Assembly (NCBI RefSeq): GCF_003018255.1
Contig: NZ_CP027440.1
Source: Escherichia coli
Lineage (GTDB): Bacteria; Pseudomonadota; Gammaproteobacteria; Enterobacterales; Enterobacteriaceae
Reading direction: 5' to 3' (one strand)
Length of the DNA stretch: 64,000 nt
The position numbers and the translations under genes are program-made. Shown piece by piece: positions 1 to 60,248 of the stretch. Under the pieces are notes generated by a model. It ran no database searches and was not told the origin of the DNA. It worked only from the letters and a program-made list of their open reading frames with translations. Within the stretch, counting starts at the first letter, position 1; each line of letters starts with the position of its first letter.

Positions 1-1509
1 CTTCAGCCCCAGACGTTTCGCCAGCCGATGCAGGTTGGCGACGTCGGTTTCCAGCATCCGCGCACAGGCGGCCCAGTTGTGATGATTTTGCGCCAGTGCC
101 TGACGAATGGTTTCACGCTGGAACGCTTCTGTCGCTTCACGCAGGTTTTGCTTAACGATAGGCACCGCCGCCGCTTCTGGCGGCGGCAACGTCACCTCAG
201 GAAAAGCAAAATGTTGCGCCTCAAGAATCACTTCATCGCCGCTGCGAGTGGCTCTCGACAGTACTACCGCCCGATGAATAGCATGTTCCAGTTCGCGCAC
301 GTTTCCCGGAAAACTGTAGTGTTGCAGTAAATTTCGCGCCCCGGCACTTAATACCACGCGGGAGAGCCCCAGCCGCAAACGACACTGCTCGCAGAAATAC
401 CCCGCCAGCAGAATGACATCATCGCCCCGCTCACGCAGCGGCGGCACCGAAAGTGGAAACACGCTCAGGCGATGAAACAAATCGGCGCGGAATCGCCCTG
501 CCAGCACCTCTTCGCGTAAATCGCGGTTAGTCGCCGCCAGCACGCGCACATCGACCCGCAAACTGCGGTCATCGCCAACGCGCTGAATATCGCCATACTG
601 CAACACCCTCAGCAGCTTGGCCTGCAATGCCAACGACAACTCGCCGATCTCATCGAGAAACAGCGTGCCGTTATCCGCCATTTCAAACTTCCCGCTGCGG
701 TTACTGATAGCACCAGTAAACGCCCCTTTCACATGCCCGAACAACTCACTTTCCGCCACACTTTCCGGCAGTGCGGCACAGTTGAGATAGACCAGCGGAT
801 TCACCGCCCGTGGCGAGGCTTCATGAATCGCTTTCGCCACCAGCTCCTTACCGGTTCCCGTCTCACCGCTAATTAAAACGTTGAGATCGGATGCCGCCAC
901 AATCTCAATCTCTTTTTTCAATTGCGTCATGCCTGGGGACAAACCAATCATCTGCGTCTGTTTCACCGCTTCAAACGGCGCGGCATCGCCTGGCAGCATA
1001 TTCTGGCTTTCCAGTTGTTCAATCAGTAACGCATTACTTAACGCTCCCGCCGCCAGTGCGGCAATCAGCCGTAGCTCTTCGTCGCTGAAAACATCGAACT
1101 GATCGGGCTGCATCCCGTCGAGCGTCAAGGCACCGATCAGGTTTTGCCCGGCAAACAACGGCAAACCAACGCAGGCGTGAACCTTCAGACTCTCCTGCCC
1201 TGGAATCAAACCGTCATAAGGATCGGGCAATTCGCTGTCTGCGGGAAAGCGCACCACATCACCCGCGCGGGCAATCGCTTCCAGCCGTGGATGACCTTCC
1301 AGCGCAAAGCGTCTACCGAGTACATCCTTCGCCAGCCCGTCGATGGCAAGCGGAATAAACTGCCGCGAGTCGTAACGTAGCAACGCAGACGCATCGCACT
1401 CCAGCACCTGACGCAGCGTGGTGATCAGGCGCTGAAAACGATCCTGATGACCAATCCCACGCTGCAATTCGATGGCGATATTCGCCAGCACATCAACGGA
1501 AAAACTCAT
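1..1509 (-). CDS. norR: Anaerobic nitric oxide reductase transcription regulator NorR (sigma54-dependent activator); start ATG at 1509-1507, last ~2 codons and stop lie left of the window
   Basis: Minus-strand frame translated by hand: N-terminus [12 protein letters not shown]..., AAA+ motifs GETGTGKE and GAFTGA, C-terminus ...LAKRLGLK at window edge; divergent from norV. Not in ORF track because no stop codon within window. Confidence 0.9.
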
Positions 1510-1521
1510 CTTTGCCTCACT

Positions 1522-1577
1522 GTCAATTTGACTATAGATATTGTCATATCGACCATTTTATTGATAGTCATTTTGAC
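1522..1577. promoter_or_regulatory. Three NorR enhancer sites (GT-N7-AC inverted repeats) in the norR-norV intergenic region
   Basis: GTCAATTTGAC (1522-1532), GTCATATCGAC (1543-1553), GTCATTTTGAC (1567-1577) read directly from sequence. Confidence 0.85.
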
Positions 1578-1632
1578 TACTCATTAATGAGCACAATTTT
1601 ATTTATAGAGTAAAAACAATTAGATAAAAAAC

Positions 1633-1648
1633 TGGCACGCAATCTGCA
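1633..1648 (+). promoter_or_regulatory. sigma54 promoter of norVW (-24 TGGCAC / -12 TGCA)
   Basis: CTGGCACGCAATCTGCA about 50 nt upstream of norV ATG with GG-N10-GC spacing. Confidence 0.85.
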
Positions 1649-1695
1649 ATCAGCAAGACATCTTTTTAGAACACGCTGAATAAATTGAGGTTGCT

Positions 1696-3135
1696 ATGTC
1701 TATTGTGGTGAAAAATAACATTCATTGGGTTGGTCAACGTGACTGGGAAGTGCGTGATTTTCACGGTACAGAATATAAAACGCTGCGCGGCAGCAGCTAC
1801 AACAGCTACCTCATCCGCGAAGAAAAAAACGTGCTGATCGACACCGTCGACCATAAATTCAGCCGCGAATTTGTGCAGAACCTGCGTAATGAAATCGATC
1901 TGACGGATATCGATTACATCGTAATTAACCATGCTGAAGAGGACCACGCCGGGGCGCTGACCGAACTGATGGCACAAATTCCCGATACGCCGATCTACTG
2001 TACTGCCAACGCTATCGACTCGATAAATGGTCATCACCATCATCCGGAGTGGAATTTTAATGTGGTGAAAACAGGCGACACGCTGGATATCGGCAACGGC
2101 AAACAGCTCATTTTTGTCGAAACGCCAATGTTGCACTGGCCGGACAGCATGATGACTTACCTGACAGGCGACGCGGTACTGTTCAGTAACGATGCTTTCG
2201 GTCAGCACTACTGCGACGAGCATCTGTTCAACGATGAAGTGGATCAGACGGAGCTTTTCGAGCAGTGCCAGCGTTATTACGCCAATATCCTGACGCCGTT
2301 CAGCCGCCTGGTAACGCCGAAAATTACCGAGATCCTGGGCTTTAACTTACCAGTCGATATGATAGCGACCTCTCACGGCGTGGTATGGCGCGATAACCCG
2401 ACGCAAATTGTCGAGCTGTACCTGAAATGGGCGGCGGATTATCAGGAAGACAGAATCACCATTTTCTACGACACCATGTCGAATAATACCCGCATGATGG
2501 CCGATGCTATAGCCCAGGGTATTGCGGAAACCGACCCACGCGTAGCGGTGAAAATTTTCAACGTCGCCCGAAGCGATAAAAACGAAATCCTGACCAATGT
2601 CTTCCGCTCAAAAGGCGTGCTGGTCGGCACTTCGACGATGAATAACGTGATGATGCCAAAAATCGCCGGGCTGGTGGAGGAGATGACTGGTTTACGCTTT
2701 CGTAACAAACGCGCCAGTGCTTTCGGCTCTCACGGCTGGAGCGGCGGTGCGGTGGATCGTCTTTCCACACGCCTGCAGGATGCGGGTTTCGAAATGTCGC
2801 TTAGCCTGAAAGCCAAATGGCGACCGGACCAGGACGCTCTGGAGCTATGTCGTGAACACGGTCGCGAAATCGCCCGTCAGTGGGCGCTCGCGCCGCTGCC
2901 GCAGAGCACGGTGAATACGGTGGTTAAAGAAGAAACCTCTGCCACCACGACGGCTGACCTCGGCCCACGGATGCAGTGCAGCGTCTGCCAGTGGATTTAC
3001 GATCCGGCAAAAGGCGAGCCAATGCAGGACGTTGCGCCAGGAACGCCGTGGAGTGAAGTTCCGGATAACTTCCTGTGCCCGGAATGCTCCCTTGGCAAAG
3101 ACGTCTTTGACGAACTGGCATCGGAGGCAAAATGA
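1696..3135 (+). CDS. norV: Anaerobic nitric oxide reductase flavorubredoxin
   Basis: ORF track 479 aa; metallo-beta-lactamase-like N-terminus, flavodoxin-like core, C-terminal rubredoxin CxxC...CPxC (CSVCQW...CPEC). Confidence 0.96.
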
Positions 3136-4265
3136 GCAACGGCATTGTGATCATTGGTTCGGGCTTCGCCGCCCGCCAACTGGTGAAAAATATTCGCAAA
3201 CAGGACGCCTGTATTCCATTAACCCTGATTGCCGCCGACAGCATGGATGAGTACAACAAACCGGACCTCAGCCATGTTATCAGCCAGAGGCAACGTGCCG
3301 ATGACCTTACCCGCCAGACGGCGGGTGAATTTGCCGAGCAGTTTAATCTGCACCTGTTTCCGCACACCTGGGTAACGGATATCGATGCCGAAGCCCATGT
3401 GGTGAAAAGTCAGAATAATCAGTGGCAATACGACAAGTTAGTGCTGGCAACCGGTGCCAGCGCCTTTGTCCCGCCAGTGCCCGGGCGTGAGTTAATGCTG
3501 ACGTTAAATAGTCAGCAAGAGTATCGCGCCTGTGAAACGCAACTGCGGAATGCCCGACGCGTGTTGATTGTTGGCGGTGGCTTGATTGGTAGCGAACTGG
3601 CGATGGATTTTTGTCGTGCAGGCAAAGCGGTCACGCTAATCGACAACGCTGCCAGTATTCTGGCAGCGTTAATGCCACCGGAAGTAAGCAGCCGCTTGCA
3701 GCATCGGTTGACGGAGATGGGCGTTCATCTGCTGTTAAAATCTCAGTTGCAGGGGCTGGAAAAAACGGATTCTGGCATTCTGGCAACGCTGGACCGCCAG
3801 CGCAGCATCGAAGTGGATGCGGTAATTGCCGCCACCGGACTGCGCCCGGAAACCGCCCTGGCACGACGCGCCGGGCTGACGATTAATCGCGGCGTTTGCG
3901 TCGATAGTTATCTGCAAACCAGTAATGCCGATATTTATGCGCTGGGCGATTGCGCGGAAATTAACGGTCAGGTATTGCCGTTCCTCCAGCCGATTCAACT
4001 TAGCGCGATGGTGCTGGCAAAAAATCTTCTCGGCAATAACACGCCGCTGAAACTCCCGGCGATGCTGGTGAAAATCAAAACGCCGGAATTACCGCTGCAT
4101 CTGGCAGGCGAAACCCAGCGTCAGGATTTACGCTGGCAAATTAATACCGAACGCCAGGGAATGGTGGCGCGCGGTGTTGATGATGCCGACCAGCTTCGCG
4201 CCTTTGTGGTCAGTGAGGATCGGATGAAAGAGGCGTTTGGATTGTTGAAAACGTTGCCGGTGTAG
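3132..4265 (+). CDS. norW: NADH:flavorubredoxin reductase
   Basis: ORF track 377 aa; FAD/NAD dinucleotide-binding GxGxxG motifs ([16 protein letters not shown]); 4-nt overlap with norV stop. Confidence 0.95.
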
Positions 4266-4284
4266 GCGAGCTACAGTGCCCCAA

Positions 4285-4466
<182 letters not shown>

Positions 4467-4488
4467 TGGTGTCCAAATGCAACACGCT

Positions 4489-11739: not shown

Positions 11740-11822
11740 CCGGATGCGGCGTGAACGCCTTATCCGGCCTACATGTCGCACGAACCAGGTAGGCCCGATA
11801 AGCGCAGCGCATCGGGCAATCT
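11740..11822. repeat. REP elements between ascB and hycI
   Basis: GCCGGATGCGGCGTGAACGCCTTATCCGGCCTAC and inverted partner GTAGGCCCGATAAGCGCAGCGCATCGGGCA. Confidence 0.85.
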
Positions 11823-11887
11823 GGCGTTTGCTATCAGTTCTGATTCCCTCATCAAGAACATCCCTGTCCTGATTCCTTACTGAAAAA

Positions 11888-19288: not shown

Positions 19289-19750
19289 TCATGCTGCCGG
19301 GCTTTGTCCCTTTACCAGTTGGCTTAAATTCACCGGCACATTGTTTTCAATGGCGGTGTATAAGCTGTCGTAAACGCCAGCGATTTTTTCGAGATAGTGT
19401 TCCAGAACCTGTTCGCGATCGCGGATGTTGACCTTGCCATCAATCATGCCGTCAATGCTCAGTTGCGCCTGCGCAATCCGCTGTTTGTCTTCACCATCTT
19501 TTGTTTCGACGTAATACTCGATGGTGTGGCTGTTAAAGCCATCCGCCAGGGTGACGTAAATACGAAAATGTTCAAAAAGGACGAAACAGAGTTCTTTGTC
19601 CGGCGCGCAGCTCATGGCGTGATGCAGGCGCGCTTTCGATAACGTGATTCCCTGAACCAGCGAATTGCAGTAGATGTGCCACTGGTCCTGTAGGCGACGA
19701 TGCCGCTGTGCGATGTAATCGGCTTTCTCGCTTATTTCCCAAATAGTCAT
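19289..19750 (-). CDS. hycA: Formate hydrogenlyase regulatory protein HycA
   Basis: ORF track 153 aa (MTIWEISEKADYIAQRHRRLQDQWH...); first gene of hyc operon, divergent from hypA. Confidence 0.94.
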   Translation of the reverse strand: MTIWEISEKADYIAQRHRRLQDQWHIYCNSLVQGITLSKARLHHAMSCAPDKELCFVLFEHFRIYVTLADGFNSHTIEYYVETKDGEDKQRIAQAQLSIDGMIDGKVNIRDREQVLEHYLEKIAGVYDSLYTAIENNVPVNLSQLVKGQSPAA

Positions 19751-19786: not shown

Positions 19787-19802
19787 AGCATTTTTTGTGC
19801 CA
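19787..19802 (-). promoter_or_regulatory. sigma54 promoter of the hyc operon
   Basis: Reverse complement reads TTGGCACAAAAAATGCT (GG-N10-GC) about 40 nt upstream of hycA start. Confidence 0.8.
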
Positions 19803-19860: not shown

Positions 19861-19888
19861 GTCGACGTGTCATTTCGACATCATCGAC
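19861..19888. promoter_or_regulatory. FhlA-type upstream activating sequence between hycA and hypA
   Basis: GTCGACGTGTCATTTCGACATCATCGAC, repeated TCGAC half-sites. Confidence 0.7.
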
Positions 19889-19915: not shown

Positions 19916-19931
19916 TGGCACAATTATTGCT
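19916..19931 (+). promoter_or_regulatory. sigma54 promoter of the hyp operon
   Basis: CTGGCACAATTATTGCTT (GG-N10-GC) about 30 nt upstream of hypA ATG. Confidence 0.8.
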
Positions 19932-34881: not shown

Positions 34882-36246
34882 ATGTCCACAATTACATTGT
34901 TATGCATTGCGTTAACTGGCGTAATCATGCTGTTGCTGCTGGTCATCAAGGCAAAGGTACAACCATTCGTTGCTCTGCTCCTCGTCAGCCTGTTAGTCGC
35001 ACTTGCGGCGGGTATACCGGCGGGCGAAGTGGGTAAAGTGATGATCGCCGGGATGGGCGGTGTGCTTGGTTCCGTCACTATTATTATTGGTCTGGGCGCT
35101 ATGCTGGGGCGTATGATCGAACACTCTGGTGGTGCAGAGTCACTGGCTAATTATTTCAGTCGCAAGTTAGGCGACAAACGAACTATCGCTGCGCTGACTC
35201 TGGCAGCGTTCTTCCTCGGTATTCCCGTCTTCTTTGATGTCGGCTTTATTATTCTTGCGCCAATCATTTACGGTTTTGCCAAGGTTGCCAAAATATCACC
35301 ACTCAAATTTGGTCTGCCTGTCGCTGGGATCATGCTCACTGTTCACGTGGCGGTACCGCCTCATCCAGGCCCTGTCGCCGCAGCGGGGTTACTCCACGCA
35401 GACATCGGCTGGCTAACCATCATCGGTATTGCGATTTCTATTCCCGTAGGGATTGTTGGCTACTTTGCAGCGAAAATAATCAATAAGCGCCAATATGCGA
35501 TGTCGGTCGAGGTACTGGAACAGATGCAACTGGCTCCGGCCAGTGAGGAAGGCGCGACAAAATTAAGCGATAAAATAAATCCACCGGGCGTCGCGCTGGT
35601 CACCTCGCTAATTGTTATTCCTATCGCGATTATCATGGCGGGTACGGTTTCCGCAACACTGATGCCGCCTTCGCATCCCCTGCTTGGTACGCTACAGCTG
35701 ATCGGCTCACCAATGGTAGCTCTAATGATTGCGCTGGTGCTGGCATTCTGGTTATTGGCTTTACGTCGCGGCTGGAGCTTACAACACACCAGCGACATTA
35801 TGGGCTCAGCCCTTCCCACTGCGGCGGTAGTGATTTTGGTTACTGGTGCTGGAGGGGTATTTGGCAAAGTGCTGGTGGAATCGGGCGTCGGTAAAGCCCT
35901 TGCCAACATGTTACAAATGATTGACCTGCCTCTGTTACCAGCCGCATTTATTATTTCACTGGCGCTGCGTGCATCGCAGGGGTCAGCAACCGTAGCAATC
36001 CTGACAACCGGCGGGTTACTCTCAGAAGCGGTGATGGGATTGAATCCAATTCAGTGCGTATTGGTGACGCTGGCAGCCTGCTTTGGTGGGCTTGGCGCGT
36101 CACATATTAATGACTCAGGGTTCTGGATTGTGACCAAATATCTGGGGTTGTCGGTAGCAGACGGGCTGAAAACCTGGACAGTGTTAACGACCATTCTCGG
36201 TTTTACCGGATTCTTAATTACCTGGTGCATATGGGCGGTAATTTGA
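34882..36246 (+). CDS. ygbN: GntP-family acid-sugar permease
   Basis: ORF track 454 aa, multi-pass hydrophobic, GntP-like. Confidence 0.9.
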   Translation: MSTITLLCIALTGVIMLLLLVIKAKVQPFVALLLVSLLVALAAGIPAGEVGKVMIAGMGGVLGSVTIIIGLGAMLGRMIEHSGGAESLANYFSRKLGDKRTIAALTLAAFFLGIPVFFDVGFIILAPIIYGFAKVAKISPLKFGLPVAGIMLTVHVAVPPHPGPVAAAGLLHADIGWLTIIGIAISIPVGIVGYFAAKIINKRQYAMSVEVLEQMQLAPASEEGATKLSDKINPPGVALVTSLIVIPIAIIMAGTVSATLMPPSHPLLGTLQLIGSPMVALMIALVLAFWLLALRRGWSLQHTSDIMGSALPTAAVVILVTGAGGVFGKVLVESGVGKALANMLQMIDLPLLPAAFIISLALRASQGSATVAILTTGGLLSEAVMGLNPIQCVLVTLAACFGGLGASHINDSGFWIVTKYLGLSVADGLKTWTVLTTILGFTGFLITWCIWAVI

Positions 36247-36253
36247 CCTTAAT

Positions 36254-36290
36254 AAAAGGTCCGATGGGCATCGGACCTTTTATTTAGCGC
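36254..36290. terminator. Bidirectional terminator between convergent ygbN and ecdD
   Basis: AAAAGGTCCGAT-GGGC-ATCGGACCTTTTATTT: stem flanked by A-run and T-run, usable on both strands. Confidence 0.75.
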
Positions 36291-36520
36291 TTACCTTCCG
36301 CCAGCAGCGGCGGGATGCTCGGCACCATCGGCGCGTCATCAATATCTTTCTGCGTCATGCGGAACGCTTCGGGATAATGTTCGCGGCTGGTGCGGCGTAG
36401 CGGTTCGGTATCGCGCCAGGTATAGAGGCAATGCTGGCACTGGTAGACCATCCAGACATCTTTTACCGGCGATTTCGCCATCACTTCAATCTGTTCATCG
36501 GCACAACGTGGACAAATCAT
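36284..36520 (-). CDS. ecdD: Small subunit D of hydroxyarylic-acid (4-hydroxybenzoate/vanillate-type) decarboxylase
   Basis: ORF track 78 aa with zinc-ribbon-like Cys pairs (CPRCADEQ ... CQHC); immediately downstream of UbiD-like gene in same operon. Confidence 0.72.
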   Translation of the reverse strand: MICPRCADEQIEVMAKSPVKDVWMVYQCQHCLYTWRDTEPLRRTSREHYPEAFRMTQKDIDDAPMVPSIPPLLAEGKR

Positions 36521-36530
36521 CTTGTTCTCC

Positions 36531-37958
36531 TTATTGACGTGCGGCCAGCATAGCGGTCAGTTTTTCAGCCCAGGCTTTGGTTTCCGGTAAGTCCACCACC
36601 GGCTGGCTGTAGTGACCACGGTTGTCCGGGGCGACAGGCGTGGTGGCGTCGATAATCAGCTTGTCGGTGATCCCCGCCGGACTTGAGCCAGGGTCGAGTT
36701 CCAGCACGGACATATTCGGCAACTGTACCAAATCCCCTGCCGGGTTCACTTTCGAGGAGAGCGCCCACATCACCTGCGGCAGGTTGAACGGATCAACGTC
36801 TTCATCGACCATAATCACCATCTTCACGTAGCCCAGACCGTGCGGCGTGGTCATCGCACGCAGGCCCACCGCGCGGGCAAAGCCGCCGTAGCGTTTTTTG
36901 GTGGAGATAATCGCCAGCAGGCCGTGGGTGTACATGGCGTTTACCGCCTGCACTTCCGGGAACTCGGCTTTCAGTTGTTGATACAGCGGCACGCAGGTGG
37001 CAGGCCCCATCAGGTAGTCGATTTCGGTCCACGGCATACCAAGATAGAGCGATTCGAAAATCGGTTTGGTACGGTAAGAGACTTTATCGATACGCACCAC
37101 GGTCATGTTACGCCCGCCGGAGTAGTGGCCGGTAAACTCACCGAACGGCCCTTCAATCTCACGTTTACGACTTTCGATAACCCCTTCGAGGATCACTTCC
37201 GAGCCCCACGGCACATCAAAACCGGTCAGCGGGGCGGTGGCGATCGGGTACGGGCTTTCGCGCAGCGCGCCTGCCATTTCGTACTCAGACTGATCGTATT
37301 TCAGCGGCGTGGCCCCCATTAGGGTGATGATCGGATCGTTACCGAGTGTGATGGCAATCGGCAGATCTTCACCGCGCTCTTCTGCTTTATGCAGATGCAG
37401 GGCGATATCGTGCATCGGCACCGGTTGCAGGCCGAGCTTACGCTTGCCCTTCACTTCCATGCGGTAGATGCCGACGTTCTGCTTGCCGAAGTTATCCGGG
37501 TCGAGCGGATCGCGGGAAACCACGCACGCTTTATCGAGATAGAAACCGCCATCACCGTCGTTTAAACGAAACAGCGGCAGAATATTGAACAGGTTGATCT
37601 CGTCGCCATCGACGGTGTTCTGCGCCCAGGCTGGATTGGCGCGGCGCTCCGGGGCAATGGGGAAGTTATCCCAGCGGCGGATAAACTCATCAATCTGTTT
37701 TTTAACCGGGGTGTTTGGCGGCAGGCCGAGGGAAATCGCGTGGTTCTGCCAGGAACCGATGGTGTTCATTGCCACGCGGGCATCGATAAAGCCGCGAATA
37801 TTATCAAACCAAAGCGCGGGCGCGCCGTCGCCGATACGCCCGGTGGCGTTGGCTGCGGCTGCCAGATCCGGTTCCGCGTTCACCTCTTCGCTGATTTTCA
37901 GTAACTGGCCGTGGTCATCAAGCGCCTGTAAAAAGCTGCGTAAATCATCAAATGCCAT
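36531..37958 (-). CDS. ecdC: UbiD-family (prenylated-FMN-dependent) decarboxylase, subunit C of hydroxyarylic acid decarboxylase
   Basis: ORF track 475 aa; UbiD-family length and layout; between UbiX-like gene and small D subunit. Confidence 0.88.
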   Translation of the reverse strand: MAFDDLRSFLQALDDHGQLLKISEEVNAEPDLAAAANATGRIGDGAPALWFDNIRGFIDARVAMNTIGSWQNHAISLGLPPNTPVKKQIDEFIRRWDNFPIAPERRANPAWAQNTVDGDEINLFNILPLFRLNDGDGGFYLDKACVVSRDPLDPDNFGKQNVGIYRMEVKGKRKLGLQPVPMHDIALHLHKAEERGEDLPIAITLGNDPIITLMGATPLKYDQSEYEMAGALRESPYPIATAPLTGFDVPWGSEVILEGVIESRKREIEGPFGEFTGHYSGGRNMTVVRIDKVSYRTKPIFESLYLGMPWTEIDYLMGPATCVPLYQQLKAEFPEVQAVNAMYTHGLLAIISTKKRYGGFARAVGLRAMTTPHGLGYVKMVIMVDEDVDPFNLPQVMWALSSKVNPAGDLVQLPNMSVLELDPGSSPAGITDKLIIDATTPVAPDNRGHYSQPVVDLPETKAWAEKLTAMLAARQ

Positions 37959-38551
37959 TATTCATTCTCCTGAGAAAAATTCCGGGCCTGCGGCAATCCT
38001 TGCCAGCGCCTGGCGTGAGGATGTTCGAGGCCAAATTGATCCAGCACGCGGGCTACCACGTGGTGGACAATGTCATCTACCGTTTCGGGATGGTTATAAA
38101 AGGCAGGCATCGGCGGCACCATCGCCACGCCCATGCGCGAAAGTGCGAGCATATTTTCGAGATGGATTGTGCTAAGCGGCATTTCACGCGGCACCAGCAC
38201 CAGTTTGCGGCCTTCTTTGAGCACGACGTCCGCCGCGCGCCCCACCAGGCCATCGGCGTAACCAGCGCGGATACCGGCGAGCGTTTTCATACTGCATGGA
38301 ATAACGATCATGCCGTCGGTACGAAAGGAGCCGGAAGAGATAGTCGCCGCCTGATCCGCCGGGTTATGGCTGAAGTCTGCGAGGGCGGCAACATCGCGAG
38401 CGCTGTAAGGCGTTTCCAGTTCAATCGTGATTTTCGCCCACTTCGACATCACTAGATGAGTCTCGACATTCGGCATCTCCCGCAGCGCTTGCAGTAATGC
38501 CACACCAAGAGGCGCACCGGTAGCCCCTGTCATCCCGACGATCAGTTTCAT
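37958..38551 (-). CDS. ecdB: UbiX-like flavin prenyltransferase (Pad1-type), subunit B
   Basis: ORF track 197 aa; MKLIVGMTGATGA flavoprotein N-terminus typical of UbiX/Pad1. Confidence 0.9.
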   Translation of the reverse strand: MKLIVGMTGATGAPLGVALLQALREMPNVETHLVMSKWAKITIELETPYSARDVAALADFSHNPADQAATISSGSFRTDGMIVIPCSMKTLAGIRAGYADGLVGRAADVVLKEGRKLVLVPREMPLSTIHLENMLALSRMGVAMVPPMPAFYNHPETVDDIVHHVVARVLDQFGLEHPHARRWQGLPQARNFSQENE

Positions 38552-38697
38552 TGCTTACTCTCTTAATTGTTCGTATACGAACGTTATTATTAACATACTC
38601 CTTCATTTCCACAGCGGCAAGGATTGAAAAGTAACAACATCTTCTTCGTCACTGAAAAACCGCTATGATAGCGACAGAGAATTAGCCCGGAGTTTAC

Positions 38698-39105
38698 ATG
38701 GCGTTACGAAATAAAGCGTTCCATCAGTTACGACAGCTTTTTCAGCAGCATACAGCTCGCTGGCAGCACGAGTTACCTGACCTGACCAAACCACAGTACG
38801 CGGTGATGCGCGCCATTGCTGATAAGCCTGGTATCGAACAGGTGGCACTGATAGAAGCAGCAGTCAGCACCAAAGCAACGCTGGCAGAAATGTTGGCAAG
38901 AATGGAAAATCGTGGCTTAGTCAGACGTGAACATGACGCCGCTGACAAGCGGCGACGCTTTGTCTGGCTGACTGCCGAAGGAGAAAAGGTACTTGCTGCG
39001 GCGATCCCCATTGGTGACAGTGTGGATGAGGAATTTTTGGGGCGTTTGAGTGCAGAAGAGCAGGAGCTGTTTATGCAGTTGGTGCGCAAGATGATGAGCA
39101 AATAG
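38698..39105 (+). CDS. MarR/SlyA-family transcriptional regulator
   Basis: ORF track 135 aa; winged-helix region (LTKPQYAVMRAIADKPGIEQVAL ... RREHDAADKRR); divergent from the decarboxylase operon. Confidence 0.82.
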   Translation: MALRNKAFHQLRQLFQQHTARWQHELPDLTKPQYAVMRAIADKPGIEQVALIEAAVSTKATLAEMLARMENRGLVRREHDAADKRRRFVWLTAEGEKVLAAAIPIGDSVDEEFLGRLSAEEQELFMQLVRKMMSK

Positions 39106-39167
39106 GATGCTGATTGCCGGGTAGGACGCTGACGAGTCTTATCCAGGCGACAAAACACACCGACTTC

Positions 39168-39207
39168 CCAAACAAAAGAAAAAGGCCAGCCTCGCTTGAG
39201 ACTGGCC
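39168..39207 (-). terminator. rpoS rho-independent terminator
   Basis: Minus-strand reading: GGCCAGTCTCAAGCGAGGCTGGCC hairpin followed by TTTTTCTTTTGTT. Confidence 0.8.
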
Positions 39208-50365: not shown

Positions 50366-51188
50366 CGGTTTATCCCCGCTGACGCGGGGAACACACATGA
50401 ATGTCGGTTCAGACCGTGTTTTTACCCGGTTTATCCCCGCTGGCGCGGGGAACACGAGGCTGAACAGGGAGGGGGCTACCGGCACAGCGGTTTATCCCCG
50501 CTGGCGCGGGGAACACTTGCCAACCGCCAAAGACTGGAAAACCAATCTCGGTTTATCCCCGCTGGCGCGGGGAACACTTAAACTTGCCGCCGGTATGGGG
50601 GGAACGGGCCGGTTTATCCCCGCTGGCGCGGGGAACTCGTTTCGCGTCGATCGCCTTTTGCGCAATCGCGCCGGTTTATCCCCGCTGGCGCGGGGAACTC
50701 TTTCTTTTTCCATTTAAGTTATTCTAATACCCCGGTTTATCCCCGCTGGCGCGGGGAACTCGATCATGCCTTACTAAAAGGTCCGCTGACGGGCGGTTTA
50801 TCCCCGCTGGCGCGGGGAACTCATCATGACAAAAAGTTACGCTCATCTATTCAACGGTTTATCCCCGCTGGCGCGGGGAACTCTCCATATGTTGCCCCGC
50901 TCGGGACAACACCCCCGGTTTATCCCCGCTGGCGCGGGGAACTCTTAGCGCCGACAAAAGAAGTTGCGGATAACAGCGGTTTATCCCCGCTGGCGCGGGG
51001 AACTCGCCCGTTCCCAGGGAGTGCGGCTCCACCCCCGCGGTTTATCCCCGCTGACGCGGGGAACTCTTCAGTTTCACACTCGGTAATGCCGTTATTTACG
51101 GTTTATCCCCGCTGGCGCGGGGAACTCCTCGGGGCCAGCCTCCCCCATTAACCCGGCACCGGTTTATCCCCGCTGGCGCGGGGAACTC
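50366..51188 (-). CRISPR. Type I-E CRISPR array, 14 direct repeats of 29 bp (plus-strand form CGGTTTATCCCCGCTGGCGCGGGGAACTC) separated by 13 spacers of 32-33 bp; transcribed on the minus strand from the leader at 51189-51293
   Basis: Repeats located by eye at 50366, 50427, 50488, 50549, 50610, 50672, 50733, 50794, 50855, 50916, 50977, 51038, 51099, 51160 (61-62 bp period); repeat is reverse complement of the I-E repeat GAGTTCCCCGCGCCAGCGGGGATAAACCG; adjacent cas2-cas1. Confidence 0.97.
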
Positions 51189-51293
51189 TCTAAAAGTATA
51201 CATTTGTTCTTAAAGCATTTTTTCCCATAAAAACAACCCACCAACCTTAATGTAACATTTCCTTATTATTAAAGATCAGCTAATTCTTTGTTT
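51189..51293 (-). promoter_or_regulatory. CRISPR leader (AT-rich) between last repeat and cas2 stop
   Basis: About 105 bp AT-rich sequence (..AAAGTATACATTTGTTCTTAAAGCATTTTTTCCCATAAAAACAACC..) directly abutting repeat 14, located at the cas2-proximal end. Confidence 0.85.
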
Positions 51294-52497
<1,204 letters not shown>

Positions 52498-52512
52498 TTT
52501 ATTACACCTCAA

Positions 52513-53112
52513 TCACAGTGGAGCCAAAGATAGCAAGCCACATCCCATCGATTTAGCTGGCCCAATACCTTGCTGTACAAGATCTATTAACGCTGGCGCG
52601 TCGTTGATGGTGATCACCCCTTCAAAGCAAACCGTTTGGATCTTTCCACTTTTACCATCACCAGAAAAATACTGTGGCCGTTCCGATATGGGATGCACAT
52701 CTTCAACGCGCGCCGCATTGCCCAATTTACGTTGCAACCACGCGATTTGTTCTGCTTCTTTTATTAACGGAACCCGACAGCGTTTAATATTCCCTTTACT
52801 GTCCAGGCGCTTTTGATTGTCGAGAATAGTTTTGATCGGATTTGCCCGAAGCCGAAAATAGAGTGGAACACCAACCTGAAGTTGAAATTCAACCTGTTTA
52901 GTTTTAATGACTGTCGCAACGGCAGTAGAAACAGGCATTTGCGCTGACTGCAATAAAACATGACAGCCTTCTGGTGTGTTTCGCTTCTCAACATGAAAAA
53001 GAAAATCACGAGCAGCATCCGGTCTGTTTGGAAATAAATGCCATAATCCCTGGTGAAGTTGGTAAAGATCCCTGCTCCAGGCCCTGGCAATGATGACTTT
53101 ACTGAGATACAT
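52513..53112 (-). CDS. cas6e: Cas6e (CasE) crRNA endoribonuclease
   Basis: ORF track 199 aa (MYLSKVIIARAWSRDLYQLH...). Confidence 0.95.
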   Translation of the reverse strand: MYLSKVIIARAWSRDLYQLHQGLWHLFPNRPDAARDFLFHVEKRNTPEGCHVLLQSAQMPVSTAVATVIKTKQVEFQLQVGVPLYFRLRANPIKTILDNQKRLDSKGNIKRCRVPLIKEAEQIAWLQRKLGNAARVEDVHPISERPQYFSGDGKSGKIQTVCFEGVITINDAPALIDLVQQGIGPAKSMGCGLLSLAPL

Positions 53113-53773
53113 CCATACCTCCTTTAATCACATACCATTCTCGGGAAGCAAATTGTCGAGGTAAGGTGATCATCGGTTCGTCGCGCACCGTAAATTTTAA
53201 ATGATGCCCGTCAACTGATTCCTCACTATAAATATCGCCGCCAACGGGCTCATAATTTAATAGCGCCTTCTGAGGATCCGACGCCTGACATGTCCCGAGA
53301 AAAAGCGGTTGTGTTAGCGGACAACTCCTCCGCCCCAGATACGGTGTATACCGAGGCTTTAATACTGCTTTTTCAAGTTCTGACATAACCATCGTTGCCT
53401 GTGGTGTTAACCAGATAGCGACGGTAAAGGAGGCATCACATAAATATTCGCGCCATGTTTGAATCGTTTCATGACTTTTCAAACCACGGTAATCTTCTCG
53501 CGCTCCAAGGACTGTATGGTAATCACGCAACCCCGTTACAGACACACGACGATCGTCAAGAATGAGTTCATCGCAGCGCACTGCAAATTGCACACTCTCT
53601 GATAACGCCTGTAATGAAGAAGTATCATCACGTTGGATCCCAAGACAAGCCCCGAGTAGCCCTAATAACCCGCTTCGGGTCGGAAATCTTCCGGTAGGTC
53701 GCGTTCCTTCAAAGGTCGGCTGCCCCCAGGCTTGCATTGGCCCAGCAAGCCGCAAGATCAAATAAGATCTCAT
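53099..53773 (-). CDS. cas5: Cas5e (CasD) Cascade subunit
   Basis: ORF track frame 226 aa; start placed at MRSYLILRLAGPMQAWG (224 aa). Confidence 0.94.
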   Translation of the reverse strand: MRSYLILRLAGPMQAWGQPTFEGTRPTGRFPTRSGLLGLLGACLGIQRDDTSSLQALSESVQFAVRCDELILDDRRVSVTGLRDYHTVLGAREDYRGLKSHETIQTWREYLCDASFTVAIWLTPQATMVMSELEKAVLKPRYTPYLGRRSCPLTQPLFLGTCQASDPQKALLNYEPVGGDIYSEESVDGHHLKFTVRDEPMITLPRQFASREWYVIKGGMDVSQ

Positions 53774-53775
53774 GT

Positions 53776-54867
53776 TCACGCCTCGCCATTATTACGAACC
53801 CAGGATTTTAACTGTTCTAAAGTAGGCATTTGTTTAACTTGAGCAGTAATTGGGTCTACATCAGATAAGCTGAATTGCGCAGCAGCTCCGTTCAGACCAT
53901 ATCCATTGGCAACGCGATCCCAATATTGATTAAACGCCTGTATAGACGGTTGCAAAAAGCCATCTTTCGCTTTAACCGCTTTTTCAAAAGCATTTGCCAT
54001 AGAAAGTGGCATATCGGAGAAATTAACCATTACCATATCCGCAGGGTTAAAAGCGGCATAAGTACGCTGTTTTGCTCCAGGGACCTCTGTTGCCAGCATA
54101 TGAACAACATGGGTTGCAATTTCCAGAGCCTGCTCCCTGGAGGCACCACCTAAATTTTCCTGAAGTTGAGCGAGGTTAATGTTGGCATAACGATAAAAAA
54201 CACCCGATGAAAATTCCTGAGTTCCCAGATGTGCAGAACCTTGTTCCTGTAAATCATCTACAGCGGTGAACCAGTCAATATCAGAATCAACCTGATGAGT
54301 AGTGATCGCATGCGCAATGGACATTGCACCATCAACTTTTCCCAACTCACTCATCATGCCGCTGGTTGCCATTCTTCCACTAAGCGCAATATCAACACCC
54401 TGCTGTAAATTCACACGTATGGCGGCAATATCTTCCTTAAGAACTTTGAGCAGCTTTTTATCATCCAGATTATCAGCCTCTGCTTTTGCAACCTGCTCAC
54501 AGAACCAGGCTATTTCTCCCACAACCCAGGGAGTAACCGCATCGGCAGAAATCTTTTCGGCTTCATCAACTAATTTACCGGAGAGCAGCGCTAATGTCTT
54601 ATCGATGATTTTTTGGTCAAAACGTTCACCAAGTTTTTGCCGAAGAACATCACGTAATTGTGCAAGATGAATTGTTCTGAGACTGGATTCACCAATATTT
54701 TGTGCGTAATAATCACTTTTACGCATCGCATGTTTAAGGCTTTGACTTGAAATTCTTACTCGTCTTTTCCCGCCGAAAATAGCGTCTTTCTGCATGTTCA
54801 TATCGTCGCGGTTCAGACATGAAGGGCTGTGAGAGATCAGAACATGAATATTGATAAAGTTAGACAT
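53776..54867 (-). CDS. cas7: Cas7e (CasC) Cascade backbone subunit
   Basis: ORF track 363 aa ([22 protein letters not shown]...). Confidence 0.95.
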
Positions 54868-54879
54868 AGAAAGGTTTCC

Positions 54880-55362
54880 TTACGCATTTTTGTTTGTGGT
54901 CAATACAAAATCTTCCAGAAGTTGCTGGCGTTCGCGCTTTCCCCACCAGGTCAACATCCTGGCCATTAATGGCCAGTCAAGTACGGGTTCGGCGTGAGTA
55001 AGTAATCGACGTAACTGGACCATATCGGCTGTTCTGTCAGCCCGAATTAATTGAAAGATACGGCGCTCGTTAATTCTTCCACTATTGGCTAAAGCTCTTC
55101 CCAACGAGATACCTGTTGTTTGCTCCGTTTTTTTGTCCTGATGTCGGATGACATTCTTTCCTGCGCTCAGGCAAAACACCATGCGCAAAAGAGCCTGCTG
55201 GTGACGTGGGTTTTCCCAACCAAAAGATTGCACCAGCCTATAAAACGCAGGGATATCGCGTAATTCATCAGGTTCTGAAACACGTCTAATTTGCGCACAT
55301 GCTCCATTATCCAGTTGTTGCCAGGCTCGATATAAAGCCATTGCATCAATTTCATCAGCCAT
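54880..55362 (-). CDS. cse2: Cse2 (CasB) Cascade small subunit
   Basis: ORF track 160 aa. Confidence 0.94.
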   Translation of the reverse strand: MADEIDAMALYRAWQQLDNGACAQIRRVSEPDELRDIPAFYRLVQSFGWENPRHQQALLRMVFCLSAGKNVIRHQDKKTEQTTGISLGRALANSGRINERRIFQLIRADRTADMVQLRRLLTHAEPVLDWPLMARMLTWWGKRERQQLLEDFVLTTNKNA

Positions 55363-56863
55363 TTGATGGCCCTCCTTGAGGTTTTAACTCCCGTAAATGT
55401 TTGTATAGCGTGGCGCGGGCAAGCGCTAATGTGCTTATTAATTTAGGATGATGTGCATAGGGAGCTACAGATTGATTAAATAGCATTTCACACAATTGAT
55501 GAAGTTTGTCTCGTAAATCAGCTATTACCTCATCAGCTTGGGAAAAATTAATATTCGCCAATACATCGGGAATTAATAATTCACTCTGTCGATAGAAATG
55601 CCTTTCTGCAGTCTCATGAACAGAAACTCCGGCCCCTTTGAAGTCTTTATTTTTAAACCCTTCTGCAAAGGTATATAACGCCTTGCGTAAGGCTGTTTTA
55701 TATCCCAAACCAACAGTCACTATTTCGTTTATCACATTGCCGTATTGTTGCCACCCCTGATTAAACATCAACACATCATGACGCCGTTCAAGAATAGATG
55801 CTTGATTATTACGATATCCCCCCATAATCAATTCAAGAGGACTTTGCGGCGCAATATTTCTGAATTGATTCACAACCGCCGCCACGCGATTTCCATTTTC
55901 ATTTTGAATAATCTTATCTACCACAACTCGGCTGATTTGTGTCCATGATGGTGCGGAGGTGGTGAAAGCAAGAAATTTTTCCTCAACCTCCCCTTTCTTG
56001 ACTGTTACCAGACAAGGGGAATGCGGATGGGGCCATAGCCCATTAACTGTAAAGGTAAATTTTTCCTTAAGAAAACCGGTATAACGCAAATTGCTTTCCT
56101 GACCACAGCAAGAACATTTACCAATCCCAATGGGATCGCATAGTTCAATATGCGCTGGTTGCCAGAATAAACCACGGACAAACCCAATTGAAGAAGCAGG
56201 CACCGATTCATTCGGCTTGACAGGCTTAACCCAGGTAGGTTGGTTTTCCGTATGTAATTCATTGGGAAATTGTTTTTGAAGACGAGGTATTGTGAGGACA
56301 TTGAGTAATACCGTCGAGCGAAGATCGATCCCACATACGAAGGTGGTTATAGGTGTTCCTCCACGTAAACCGCTTTTAAAGCCACCACCAAAACCAGGTG
56401 CCTGATTCGCCTGGTTGAATAACGCAATCGCAGTGCATCCACCACATAATGCTTCACCCTGCCCCGGTTGATTGACAAATGCACAATTCGTCGCGCCGCT
56501 TACCCCAGCCAACAGTTTTTCCATTGGAGTCACATCATTTGCTTTGACACCTTTGGTCTGCATAAAGGGATGTTCTGCGTGATTAAGGTAGAACATATCT
56601 ATCCACGGCGCGATGAGTTGTTGAAACTCATCTTCAGTGAGCGGATTCATTATGCGATGTCGAAATTCAACGTCATCTTTTGCCGGGGCGATAATTTGCC
56701 CAATGCAAACCAGCAGTGCTAAAGTGGCCAGTTCCATATCGTCACGGGGCAAACTTAATCGCCACTGATCTCTACTGCAGTATAGCGATTGCAGATTTAT
56801 GATTTGGACTTTCCCCCCGTTTCGCGGGCGTACAGGGATCCAGTTATCAATAAGCAAATTCAT
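55355..56863 (-). CDS. cse1: Cse1 (CasA) Cascade large subunit
   Basis: ORF track 502 aa (MNLLIDNWIPVRPRNGG...). Confidence 0.95.
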   Translation of the reverse strand: MNLLIDNWIPVRPRNGGKVQIINLQSLYCSRDQWRLSLPRDDMELATLALLVCIGQIIAPAKDDVEFRHRIMNPLTEDEFQQLIAPWIDMFYLNHAEHPFMQTKGVKANDVTPMEKLLAGVSGATNCAFVNQPGQGEALCGGCTAIALFNQANQAPGFGGGFKSGLRGGTPITTFVCGIDLRSTVLLNVLTIPRLQKQFPNELHTENQPTWVKPVKPNESVPASSIGFVRGLFWQPAHIELCDPIGIGKCSCCGQESNLRYTGFLKEKFTFTVNGLWPHPHSPCLVTVKKGEVEEKFLAFTTSAPSWTQISRVVVDKIIQNENGNRVAAVVNQFRNIAPQSPLELIMGGYRNNQASILERRHDVLMFNQGWQQYGNVINEIVTVGLGYKTALRKALYTFAEGFKNKDFKGAGVSVHETAERHFYRQSELLIPDVLANINFSQADEVIADLRDKLHQLCEMLFNQSVAPYAHHPKLISTLALARATLYKHLRELKPQGGPSNG

Positions 56864-57277
56864 TTGTTCTCCTTCATATGCTCCGACATTTCTCCTGCAT
56901 TTCTATGCGTCGGCACACTTCCGTTATCGGTAAAAACAAAGAAAAAATACGGCGTAATTAATTCAATAATCACATTCACTGCAAAAATATATTCATTGGT
57001 TTAATACAATTAACCTATACATATATTAAGATGTGTTGAATTGTTTAAAGACAATAATGCATGCATTTCAAATCTGCAAGTTATTCGTTTTATTATCAAA
57101 GAAATTTTTAGTTATAATAATTACCATAAATTTTATTACATAAAATATTCATACTGTGAATATAAAATCTCATACCGGGAAATTAAAAGAAGATGTACAT
57201 TGTGCACTTTCCCTACTTAAGTAGGGATAAACCGTTATTGGTCTTGTTATCGTCATTGATACCAATCATTCCCGAAG
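56864..57277 (-). promoter_or_regulatory. AT-rich cas3-cse1 intergenic region expected to carry the Cascade operon promoter (Pcas) and H-NS/LeuO control sites
   Basis: 414 bp strongly AT-rich non-coding stretch directly upstream of cse1; regulatory assignment is from established E. coli knowledge, exact promoter positions not determined here. Confidence 0.6.
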
Positions 57278-59944
57278 TTATTTGGGATTTGCAGGGATGA
57301 CTCTGGTCATCCCTTCATCCCGAGTGTAGGTAATAACAATATTATTACCCTGCCAGATCCATCCATCCTGATTCTGTTTCCCTTCCAGCCAAAGTAACCC
57401 ATCTTCATCTACTACTTCAGAAAAATTACGTTTCCAGGTGAAGGGTACATTGACGCGATTAAGTGCTAACGCCTCATACTGCTGTTCATGACTTAGGTCC
57501 TCGTAGACCTGGCCATCGAGCAGTTGTTTACCTGAAGACGTTTGTAAATAAGGCAATAATGGCAGGCTCATTTCCCCATCCCTCGTTACCGCAAGAATTG
57601 TTTCATCGTTATCCTGCAAGCTATATTCTTCAGCCCACTGCAGAACCTTGCGAGCCTTGAACCTCTTTTCACACTCAGCGCTTTCAAACTTATCCATGCC
57701 TTTGATGACCCATTCTGGCTCATCCATTTCAGCATCATCGTAAATGCTATCCAGCCATTGCCGGTAGGCATCGGGGAAAAATAAGGATGCTCCATTAAGT
57801 TCCTCAATATGTTGCTGCGTCCGCCACATGACTCTAACGTTGCTATAAATATGCTCATGTCGTCCGTAACCTTCGCCATCAGGCAGCAAAACGGTGGCAA
57901 GAGGAACCTCAAAACCAGCGGGACGATATTTGCGATGATGGCGATGTAAACGGCCCAATCGTTGGAAAAGTAAATCTGCGGGGCAATGCTGAGTAATTAA
58001 CCAATCAAAATCAACGTCGAGTGATTGTTCCACGACCTGGGTGGCGACAAGTATCCGTCCAACATTTCGCTTCCCATTTTTGCCGAAATTGCTAATAACT
58101 CGATTCTCTTTTTCACGACGATCGTTCAGCGTAAAGCGCGCATGAAACAAATCTATATCTACTTGCGTGTTATTTAGTTCCTTTAACCGTTGGTGGCATA
58201 GCTGTGCAACATCAACCAAATTGCAGATAAGACAGACTTGTGCACCCGCATTTGCCGCTACGATCATTCGCTCTAACATCCTAAGGTCAGGTAACATGTC
58301 AGCTAAATAAATAGGTTCTGGCCGAATCGAAAAGCGGGGCGGGAGTTGTTCTGAATGAGCTAACAGATCAAAACGTTGTGCACCATTCACACCTCGCCAG
58401 TTAATGAGTGGATATGCGGAGTTATTTTCCTCTGGATCTGTATGCAGACCATAAGTATCCAGAAGTTTCTGTTTTTGTTTCATTGGTAGAGTTGCGGAAA
58501 GAAGAATAACACTCCCCCCCACATCAGCCTGAGCCTTGAGCACAGCCTCCAGCAAGCCGTTCATATACGTGTCGTAAGCATGAACTTCATCAACAATTAA
58601 AACACTTCGACCAATTCCCAAACCACGGATAAAGCGGTGTTTAACTGGCAATACCGATATCAACACCTGATCAATCGTGCAAACGCCGATTTGCCCAAGA
58701 AACACTTTCTTATTGCTTTGTGACAACCACTGACAACACTGAACCCATGCTTCTTCTTGCCCCTGCTCAGTAAATGCGCGTGATTTTATTGATTGAAAAA
58801 GGTGGTTAAAACGTGAATTACCATGAGCAAGAATAAGATTTGGGGAGGTAAATAAACGGCTCGCGTTCGCTTCCATTCTGCTGAGCATTGCATTTGCAGT
58901 AGCTTGTGTAGGGAGGGCAAAAATAACACTATCCGCAAGTTGTTGGTCAATAAGTTTCCAGGCATAGGCCAGCGCAGTTTCAGTTTTACCTGAACCCGTA
59001 GGTGCCTCTATTACCGTCAGCCCGGGCGCTACTGGAAGAGCATCAACTAACACTTGTAATTGTCTGGGTTGATAGCCATTGTCCAGTAGAGCATGAACAC
59101 CTTCATAACATCGCTTATTTGATACAAGGCCGCTCAACTCCAATACCCGGCTCGCATCCTGCTGTCGGTCCTGGAAATACGTTCTTAGAGCATTTATGTT
59201 GGAAGGTGCATCCTCTTTAAACAGAAAGGTATTCGTTGTAGTCCAGGAGCCTAACCAGTCAGCAAGCGAGCAAAAACCTGCTAACAGTGATGAACAATCA
59301 GGTGGTATATCGTTTATAGATAACCCGGCTGGCGTTAAAAATAATGCTTCGAGTACAGATATCCACTCCTCACGAGCCTGTTTATCTTGCGCAGCATAAG
59401 ATGCCAGAGAAGCTGGCATTTCCCAACGCGACTTATCTTGATCCTGGGAATGTAATATAAAACCATGATGTCCTGTAACAGCCTCTACCCATGGAAACCA
59501 GGACTCATAAGGATGAGGAGCGGCATCAAAAAAACTGAAAAAATCCCCGGGAGATTGCTCTGAAAGTGAATCCTGGTTAAACCAATACAGACCGGCTGCA
59601 CCATGATTAAATTTACGGCACATTTGTGTTGATGGACCATTAAGTGATGGCGTTGCAGGATTTAATTTCAGCCAACTTTCTGCTGATTTATATTGGAATC
59701 GTATATCAAACTTTCCGATATCATGAAGGGCAATGAAAAATAACAGCCAGGCTTTCACCTTCTGTTTTGATAGCATTTCATTTCGGCAAAAAGCATTTTG
59801 TAGTACGACTGATTGATCCCACCAGCAATCTGCAACAGCTGCAACATCCAGGCAATGATAAATCAACAGATGAATATCATTTCCTTTCGTCAGGCTTTTT
59901 GAGGATTTCCCCCAGTAATGACATATATATTTAAAAGGTTCCAT
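57278..59944 (-). CDS. cas3: Cas3 HD-nuclease/helicase (type I-E)
   Basis: ORF track 888 aa; HD motif (ALHDIGKFD), Walker A EAPTGSGKTE, DEVH box (LIVDEVHAYD); SD GGGAGG 7 nt upstream of ATG. Confidence 0.96.
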   Translation of the reverse strand: MEPFKYICHYWGKSSKSLTKGNDIHLLIYHCLDVAAVADCWWDQSVVLQNAFCRNEMLSKQKVKAWLLFFIALHDIGKFDIRFQYKSAESWLKLNPATPSLNGPSTQMCRKFNHGAAGLYWFNQDSLSEQSPGDFFSFFDAAPHPYESWFPWVEAVTGHHGFILHSQDQDKSRWEMPASLASYAAQDKQAREEWISVLEALFLTPAGLSINDIPPDCSSLLAGFCSLADWLGSWTTTNTFLFKEDAPSNINALRTYFQDRQQDASRVLELSGLVSNKRCYEGVHALLDNGYQPRQLQVLVDALPVAPGLTVIEAPTGSGKTETALAYAWKLIDQQLADSVIFALPTQATANAMLSRMEANASRLFTSPNLILAHGNSRFNHLFQSIKSRAFTEQGQEEAWVQCCQWLSQSNKKVFLGQIGVCTIDQVLISVLPVKHRFIRGLGIGRSVLIVDEVHAYDTYMNGLLEAVLKAQADVGGSVILLSATLPMKQKQKLLDTYGLHTDPEENNSAYPLINWRGVNGAQRFDLLAHSEQLPPRFSIRPEPIYLADMLPDLRMLERMIVAANAGAQVCLICNLVDVAQLCHQRLKELNNTQVDIDLFHARFTLNDRREKENRVISNFGKNGKRNVGRILVATQVVEQSLDVDFDWLITQHCPADLLFQRLGRLHRHHRKYRPAGFEVPLATVLLPDGEGYGRHEHIYSNVRVMWRTQQHIEELNGASLFFPDAYRQWLDSIYDDAEMDEPEWVIKGMDKFESAECEKRFKARKVLQWAEEYSLQDNDETILAVTRDGEMSLPLLPYLQTSSGKQLLDGQVYEDLSHEQQYEALALNRVNVPFTWKRNFSEVVDEDGLLWLEGKQNQDGWIWQGNNIVITYTRDEGMTRVIPANPK

Positions 59945-60248
59945 TAATAGCCTCCCTGTTTTTTTAGTATTATCGATGATATCAGTGGACTATTTTTCGA
60001 TGCTGCTCATAAATATCGAATTACAGTGATATACACATGTCTTGCCTCCCTGCAAAGAAGAGACTAACATTCGAATTGCTTAGGTTCGAACGCAGGCCTC
60101 AGGTTGATAGAAATATCGCCTGGGGCTTTTGTCCATCTGGAACCTCGCGAATGCTTAACGCCAGACAGCCTCAAGCACCCAACTCCATTCTATACCTGTT
60201 AATTCTCCCTGCGATGTTCACCTTTAAATGCCGGAATGCTGCTCGCAA

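Follow-up and report, generated by a model that had tools for sequence, protein, structure and literature searches.

The divergent norR-norVW intergenic region of an Escherichia coli genome, with three NorR-type enhancer sites and a sigma54 promoter

The question raised by this locus, a short spacer near the left end of a 64,000-nucleotide stretch of DNA (hereafter the window), is whether the sequence between two divergent genes holds the complete and intact elements of a nitric oxide (NO)-inducible switch. Positions 1510-1695 form the spacer between the divergent norR and norVW of Escherichia coli. To the left lies norR (1-1509, minus strand; start codon complementary to 1507-1509), which encodes an NO-sensing sigma54 enhancer-binding protein and is cut by the window's edge, 503 of its 504 codons being present and the last codon and the stop missing. 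To the right, norV (1696-3135, plus strand) encodes the anaerobic NO reductase flavorubredoxin at its full length of 479 aa, and norW (3132-4265, plus strand) the NADH:flavorubredoxin reductase of 377 aa. A Shine-Dalgarno sequence, GAGG (1687-1690, plus strand), stands 5 nt ahead of the norV ATG at 1696, and the norW start overlaps the norV stop (ATGA), which is consistent with a single operon. Comparison with NCBIfam equivalog models identified NorR as NF003451 (824 bits against a cutoff of 476), NorV as NF003954 (1046.7 bits against 711, covering 1-479 of 479 residues) and NorW as NF003437 (683.9 bits against 392, full length), and the operon downstream of the spacer is, by the two latter matches, one of genes for NO-detoxifying enzymes. 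At 479 aa NorV is distinct from the deleted allele that some O157 lineages are known to carry. When a 401-base query centred on the spacer was compared with complete E. coli genomes, the region was found in 5,425 of 5,426, always flanked by genes annotated in RefSeq as norR and norV; K-12 MG1655 has the same norR/norV arrangement. The feature is already known and ordinary, part of a textbook system. Directly after the norW stop, and before the convergent hypF, a 96-bp unit is present twice (82% matches) at 4279-4468; the copies resemble REP/BIME-type palindromic elements and may act as a terminator or mRNA stabiliser of the norVW operon.

The regulator encoded beside the spacer has the make-up expected of an NO sensor acting on a sigma54 promoter, with GAF, AAA+ and HTH domains in a divergently transcribed, adjacent gene. 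Residues R75, D96, D99, C113 and D131, proposed as the iron ligands, and the interdomain residue R81 (PMC4601167, PMC2941729) are all present in the window's NorR, as are the GAFTGA motif (262-267) and the Walker A motif at 215. Identity to the K-12 proteins is 98.6% for NorR (496/503), 99.4% for NorV and 97.3% for NorW. Residues 1-176 of NorR, which span the whole GAF domain, are identical to K-12, and the seven substitutions that distinguish it from the K-12 protein all fall outside that domain.

The initial annotation of this DNA had proposed three tandem GT-N7-AC NorR sites, and three consecutive inverted repeats of this type, as defined in PMC2831303, do indeed lie upstream of the promoter described below. 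Numbered after the primers of Tucker et al. 2010 (PMC2831303), they are site 3 (1522-1532, GTCAATTTGAC), a perfect 5-1-5 palindrome that is promoter-distal and 12 nt from the norR start codon; site 2 (1543-1553, GTCATATCGAC), an imperfect palindrome; and the promoter-proximal site 1 (1567-1577, GTCATTTTGAC). In position they needed a small correction, the second and third repeats along the spacer (sites 2 and 1) starting one base earlier than counting by hand would place them. Their centres are 21 and 24 bp apart and fall at about -132 (site 3), -111 (site 2) and -87 (site 1) relative to the predicted norV +1. Those at 1522 and 1567 have the palindromic form GTCA-N3-TGAC and match on either strand; the site at 1543 matches on the plus strand only. 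The motif GTCANNNNGAC occurred 18 times in the window, against 6.15 +/- 2.58 expected, with 7 of the 18 matches within 1522-1743, and the window has the three-site pattern with its spacers a single time, whereas 100 dinucleotide-preserving shuffles did not produce it at all. In direct alignment the 11-mers of all three sites and their immediate flanks are identical to MG1655. They are also, letter for letter, the sites mutated and footprinted in K-12: the three repeats equal the wild-type forms that can be derived from the mutagenic primers Site1+, Site2+ and Site3+ of Tucker et al. 2010 (PMC2831303), the match to the primers breaking only at the polymorphic position 1559, in a spacer outside the 11-mers. 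In that work, changing GT-N7-AC to GG-N7-CC in any single site abolished induction of norV-lacZ in K-12, maximal NorR ATPase activity and open-complex formation needed all three sites, and site 1 was apparently the one of highest affinity (PMC2831303). Genomic SELEX with NorR showed binding in the norR-norV spacer only (PMC8249747).

A fourth, perfect GTCA-N3-TGAC sequence, GTCAACGTGAC, lies at 1733-1743, 38 nt into norV, and was rejected as a NorR site. It encodes part of the conserved WVGQRDWEV motif, and the T completing its GTCA occupies the wobble position of a Gly codon; since the Citrobacter loci, and all Enterobacter loci but one, have C, A or G instead, the match reads as a coding by-product. 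Terminator-like hairpins at 1781-1797 (minus strand) were likewise set aside; they lie inside norV and are at chance level.

Downstream of the enhancer, a sigma54 (RpoN) promoter is found at 1633-1648 on the plus strand, TGGCACGCAATCTGCA, with GG at 1634-1635 (-25/-24), GC at 1646-1647 (-13/-12) and the GG-N10-GC spacing. It matches 10 of the 11 specified positions of TGGCAC-N5-TTGCA and departs from TGGCAC-N5-TTGCW at a single position. The promoter had previously been described as a canonical TGGCAC-N5-TGCA; its presence and spacing held up, and its sequence is to be read as TGGCAC-N5-CTGCA, the -12 element being CTGCA and "canonical" meaning one mismatch from consensus. By the -24/-12 convention, norV transcription is predicted to start near 1659. 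The sigma54 pattern by itself is not enriched in the window (four matches where 2.39 are expected; 22 of 100 shuffles had at least four), and two of the four matches are well placed, the one upstream of norV and another at 19916-19931, about 30 nt ahead of the hypA start. A gSELEX peak for the RpoN holoenzyme has been reported in the norR/norV spacer (PMC8743547).

The A+T-rich tract that the earlier reading had pointed out separates enhancer from promoter. It extends from 1578 to 1632, is 80% A+T compared with 47.5% for the whole window, and corresponds to the reported IHF-binding region, located after the NorR sites and ahead of the transcription start (PMC2831303, PMC4601167), where the DNA would loop. 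The IHF consensus with at most one mismatch gave no match within 1578-1632; the only one nearby was TATCAATAAAATG at 1554-1566 (minus strand), between sites 2 and 1, and the pattern was not enriched in the window as a whole (61 matches against 50.6 expected). A putative IHF-like core, AAACAATTAGATA, lies at 1614-1626 on the plus strand, with two mismatches to WATCAANNNNTTR; we infer this placement because it is based on the alignment of enterobacterial spacers, in which AAACAATTAGATA aligns, as read by eye, with the full IHF consensus AATCAAACAATTA of Citrobacter werkmanii and with near-consensus sequences in other relatives. Within the core, the columns A-TCAA...T-AAA are kept in all 10 enterobacterial loci, and E. 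coli IAI39 and TC_EC10 have AATCAA there.

To see which parts of the spacer vary within the species, nine E. coli haplotypes, 93.6-100% identical to the window's spacer, were aligned. No variation was seen in the three 11-mers, nor in the 16-bp promoter, the 5' UTR or the Shine-Dalgarno sequence, and all polymorphism was located at 1558, 1559 and 1563 (between sites 2 and 1), at 1590-1621, and at 1651 and 1652, most of it in the A+T tract. Against K-12 MG1655 the window differs at 1559 (T in the window, G in K-12), 1590 (A, G), 1594 (C, T), 1621 (T, C) and 1651 (C, T), the last at about -8; all five positions are outside the NorR 11-mers and the -24/-12 element. Among the nine haplotypes sampled, C1594 occurs in that of the window only. 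The claim that all elements are intact was borne out: the sites and the -24/-12 element are identical to K-12, and NorR, NorV and NorW are intact as well.

These differences give rise to an alternative reading, namely that the substitutions of this strain (at 1559, 1590, 1594, 1621 and 1651, and the seven in NorR) materially change inducibility compared with K-12. Five intergenic differences, one of them unique among the haplotypes sampled, could have an effect, and an engineered pNorV variant without a second IHF site is reportedly leakier and more highly expressed (PMC11334186), which indicates that the tract can tune output. We nevertheless regard a material change as improbable, given that this haplotype, or one nearly identical, is widespread (368 complete-genome records match the window's spacer at 99% identity or more), that position 1621 is within the N4 of the IHF core, that T1559, A1590, T1621 and C1651 are shared with E. 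albertii, and that the substitutions leave the NorR half-sites, the GG and GC, the GAF ligands and GAFTGA untouched.

One E. coli genome departs from the invariance of the sites. AF3 (locus L123, NZ_OZ547117.1) carries a 45-bp deletion, aligned to 1522-1566 of the window, by which sites 3 and 1 are joined into a single remaining site; it was the sole genome of the 5,425 in which the spacer match covered less than 80% of the query, and the window is without the deletion. Judged by the published mutagenesis, this single-site allele should fail to induce norVW. One may speculate, with rather little confidence, that variation outside the sites (1590-1621 including C1594, and 1651) adjusts the threshold of norVW induction, or its amplitude, from one E. 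coli lineage to another, AF3 being the NorR-blind extreme. With its sites invariant, its variation confined to the spacers and an enhancer deletion in 1 of 5,425 genomes, the E. coli spacer makes a clean example of footprinting that may be useful.

Elsewhere, the window is a mosaic relative to NZ_CP031215.1, a genome that is 100% identical to it over the norR-norV spacer. Compared with that genome, about 1.3 kb holding two genes between hycI and ascB are absent from the window (at 11774-11867) and about 2.9 kb of the mutS-rpoS variable region (36235-39172) are a different sequence; outside those regions identity is only 96.9-99.0%. A CRISPR array at 50367-51190 comprises 14 repeats, CGGTTTATCCCCGCTGGCGCGGGGAAC[A/T]C, with a period of 61. 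Beside it, at 51294-59944, runs a series of minus-strand ORFs that are cas-like by size, with an ORF of up to 888 aa that would fit cas3, and array and ORFs together resemble a type I-E system located between iap and cysH. The genome with the best match to the norR spacer lacks this whole CRISPR/ORF block. A search against Rfam found no RNA family in or near 1510-1695; its sole match in the window was the sok antitoxin RNA (RF01794, 104.4 bits) at 60024-60180 on the minus strand, a hok/sok-type locus beside cysH.

Conservation beyond E. coli was assessed at two depths. When the spacers of ten enterobacterial loci (E. coli, E. albertii, Citrobacter, Enterobacter and the locus L100) were aligned, the conserved islands proved to be the three GTC-N5-GAC sites, the IHF-like core and TGGCACG, the last within a conserved TGGCACG-AA--TG. 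The GTC and GAC of site 3 were kept in all 10 loci, the GTCATA of site 2 across the enterics, and TGAGGT at the norV Shine-Dalgarno in 9 of the 10. The three-site pattern was then scanned over about 100,000 species, with one genome each, and matched at least 120 loci, in which the three-site span was always 55-57 bp among the matches listed. Conservation of GTCA and GAC in these matches is built into the scan, and the association with norR and with a promoter is the independent result. Among the matches listed, a gene for a NorR homologue (45-97% identical to that of the window) starts within 150 nt in 29 of 120 loci; TGGCAY-N6-TG follows within 130 nt in 27 of these 29, and a promoter-like element is present in 11 of the 91 loci that lack a neighbouring norR. 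In enterics the divergently transcribed target is norV, in Pseudomonas and Comamonas a flavohaemoprotein. Two of the latter proteins, one from each genus, were scanned and match NF009805, the NO-inducible flavohaemoprotein (572.9 and 528.4 bits), and the remaining Pseudomonas and Comamonas targets read as the same globin by eye, in agreement with published statements that hmp is a NorR target (PMC2831303, PMC4601167). At four of the 11, from Pseudomonas and Shewanella, namely L007 (1716-1772), L019, L050 and L072, direct reading of the sequence shows triple sites followed by a TGGCAC or TGGCAT promoter with no adjacent norR, and L007 has an IHF-consensus core besides. These four may be unlinked members of NorR regulons, with the qualification that the norR gene of L072 may sit past the end of the fetched locus. 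Many of the matches not associated with NorR come from metagenome-assembled genomes (MAGs) of Bacteroidota and Actinomycetota, overlap one another and are periodic, and we read them as probable tandem repeats or chance matches.

The wider comparison bears on a second alternative, in which the sites are mainly operators for autoregulation of norR rather than an enhancer of norVW. They do lie directly upstream of norR, with its start codon 12 nt from site 3, and their position 12-70 nt from that start fits the reported control by NorR of its own gene (PMC8249747, PMC11334186). The two roles are compatible with each other, activation of norV through these sites has been demonstrated, and hmp of Pseudomonas and Comamonas is driven by this architecture too; a mainly autoregulatory purpose is accordingly very improbable. 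A scan of 1350-1850 for the sigma70 consensus passed no minus-strand promoter for norR and gave one weak plus-strand match, at 1541-1568, at chance level. The remaining alternative, that the repeats and the GG-N10-GC are chance matches in an A+T-rich spacer without a regulatory role, can draw on the commonness of short degenerate motifs, on the unenriched sigma54 pattern and on the fourth match within norV that is indeed a coding by-product, yet its likelihood is practically nil, as the three-site pattern did not recur in shuffled sequence, the sites are invariant while the adjoining spacers vary, the pattern retrieves norR loci across gamma- and beta-proteobacteria, and mutation of the identical K-12 sites in published work has already refuted it through the loss of induction.

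Together, these data make it almost certain that the region is a sigma54-dependent, NorR-activated, NO-inducible divergent control region for norR and norVW, and none of the results speaks against it. Because the sequences are identical, the mechanism worked out for K-12 (PMC2831303, PMC2941729, PMC4601167) can be applied to the window. Three NorR dimers would bind the three GT-N7-AC repeats at 1522-1577, and the enhancer DNA would favour assembly of NorR into a hexameric AAA+ ring. IHF would bend the tract at 1578-1632 so that the ring meets the closed complex of sigma54-RNA polymerase on TGGCAC-N5-CTGCA (1633-1648). Without NO, the N-terminal GAF domain would repress the AAA+ domain; binding of NO at the non-haem iron of the GAF domain would form a mononitrosyl complex and relieve this repression, and ATP hydrolysis would then lead to an open complex and to norVW transcription from about 1659. 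Since rpoN and ihfA/ihfB lie outside the window, we infer NO-inducibility in this strain from the control region and its regulator, and NorR binding and looping are likewise predicted.

With enhancer, promoter, NorR, NorV and NorW intact, the strain should possess an anaerobic NO-detoxification response. Such a response has reportedly been linked to survival under host NO and to the norV-intact and norV-deleted genotypes of EHEC O157. The locus is a textbook case of a sigma54 promoter with its enhancer-binding protein, and pNorV is widely reused as a part in NO biosensors; confirming it here matters little beyond annotation.

Among known systems, one parallel is TyrR, where, as for NorR, a hexamer is thought to be nucleated by three adjacent dyad sites, an analogy drawn by Tucker et al. 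(PMC2831303); the TyrR hexamer differs in that it represses sigma70 promoters and performs no sigma54 remodelling. The FhlA-dependent hyc and hyp promoters in the same window are likewise served by an enhancer-binding protein with an N-terminal GAF-type region, upstream sites and -24/-12 elements, but the activator, the signal (formate) and the sequence of the upstream activating sites (UAS) are different, and the window's NorR scores 283.5 bits on the FhlA model against a cutoff of 830. In that divergent hycA-hypA region, the hyp promoter is TGGCACAATTATTGCT (19916-19931, plus strand) and the hyc promoter TGGCACAAAAAATGCT (19787-19802, minus strand); an extra sigma54 match, TGGCACATCTACTGCA (19666-19681, minus strand), lies inside the hycA reading frame, and GTCATTTCGAC at 19869-19879 falls within the presumed FhlA UAS. 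RpoN gSELEX peaks are reported at both the hyc and the hyp spacers (PMC8743547). The NorR-hmp systems of Pseudomonas and Comamonas (in the literature, of V. cholerae and P. aeruginosa) share with the window a divergent norR, three GT-N7-AC sites and a TGGCAC promoter. They differ in that their NorR is 45-54% identical to that of the window, their target is Hmp and not NorVW, their sites start 2-5 nt from the norR start, and their promoter is about 25 bp closer (offset of about 99-103 compared with 124). The K-12 norR-norVW region itself (Hutchings 2002; Gardner 2003; Tucker 2004, 2010; Bush 2010) is the same locus with the same gene order and a spacer likewise of 186 bp, and it agrees base for base with the window in the three NorR sites, in the -24/-12 element, and in the 5' UTR with its Shine-Dalgarno sequence.
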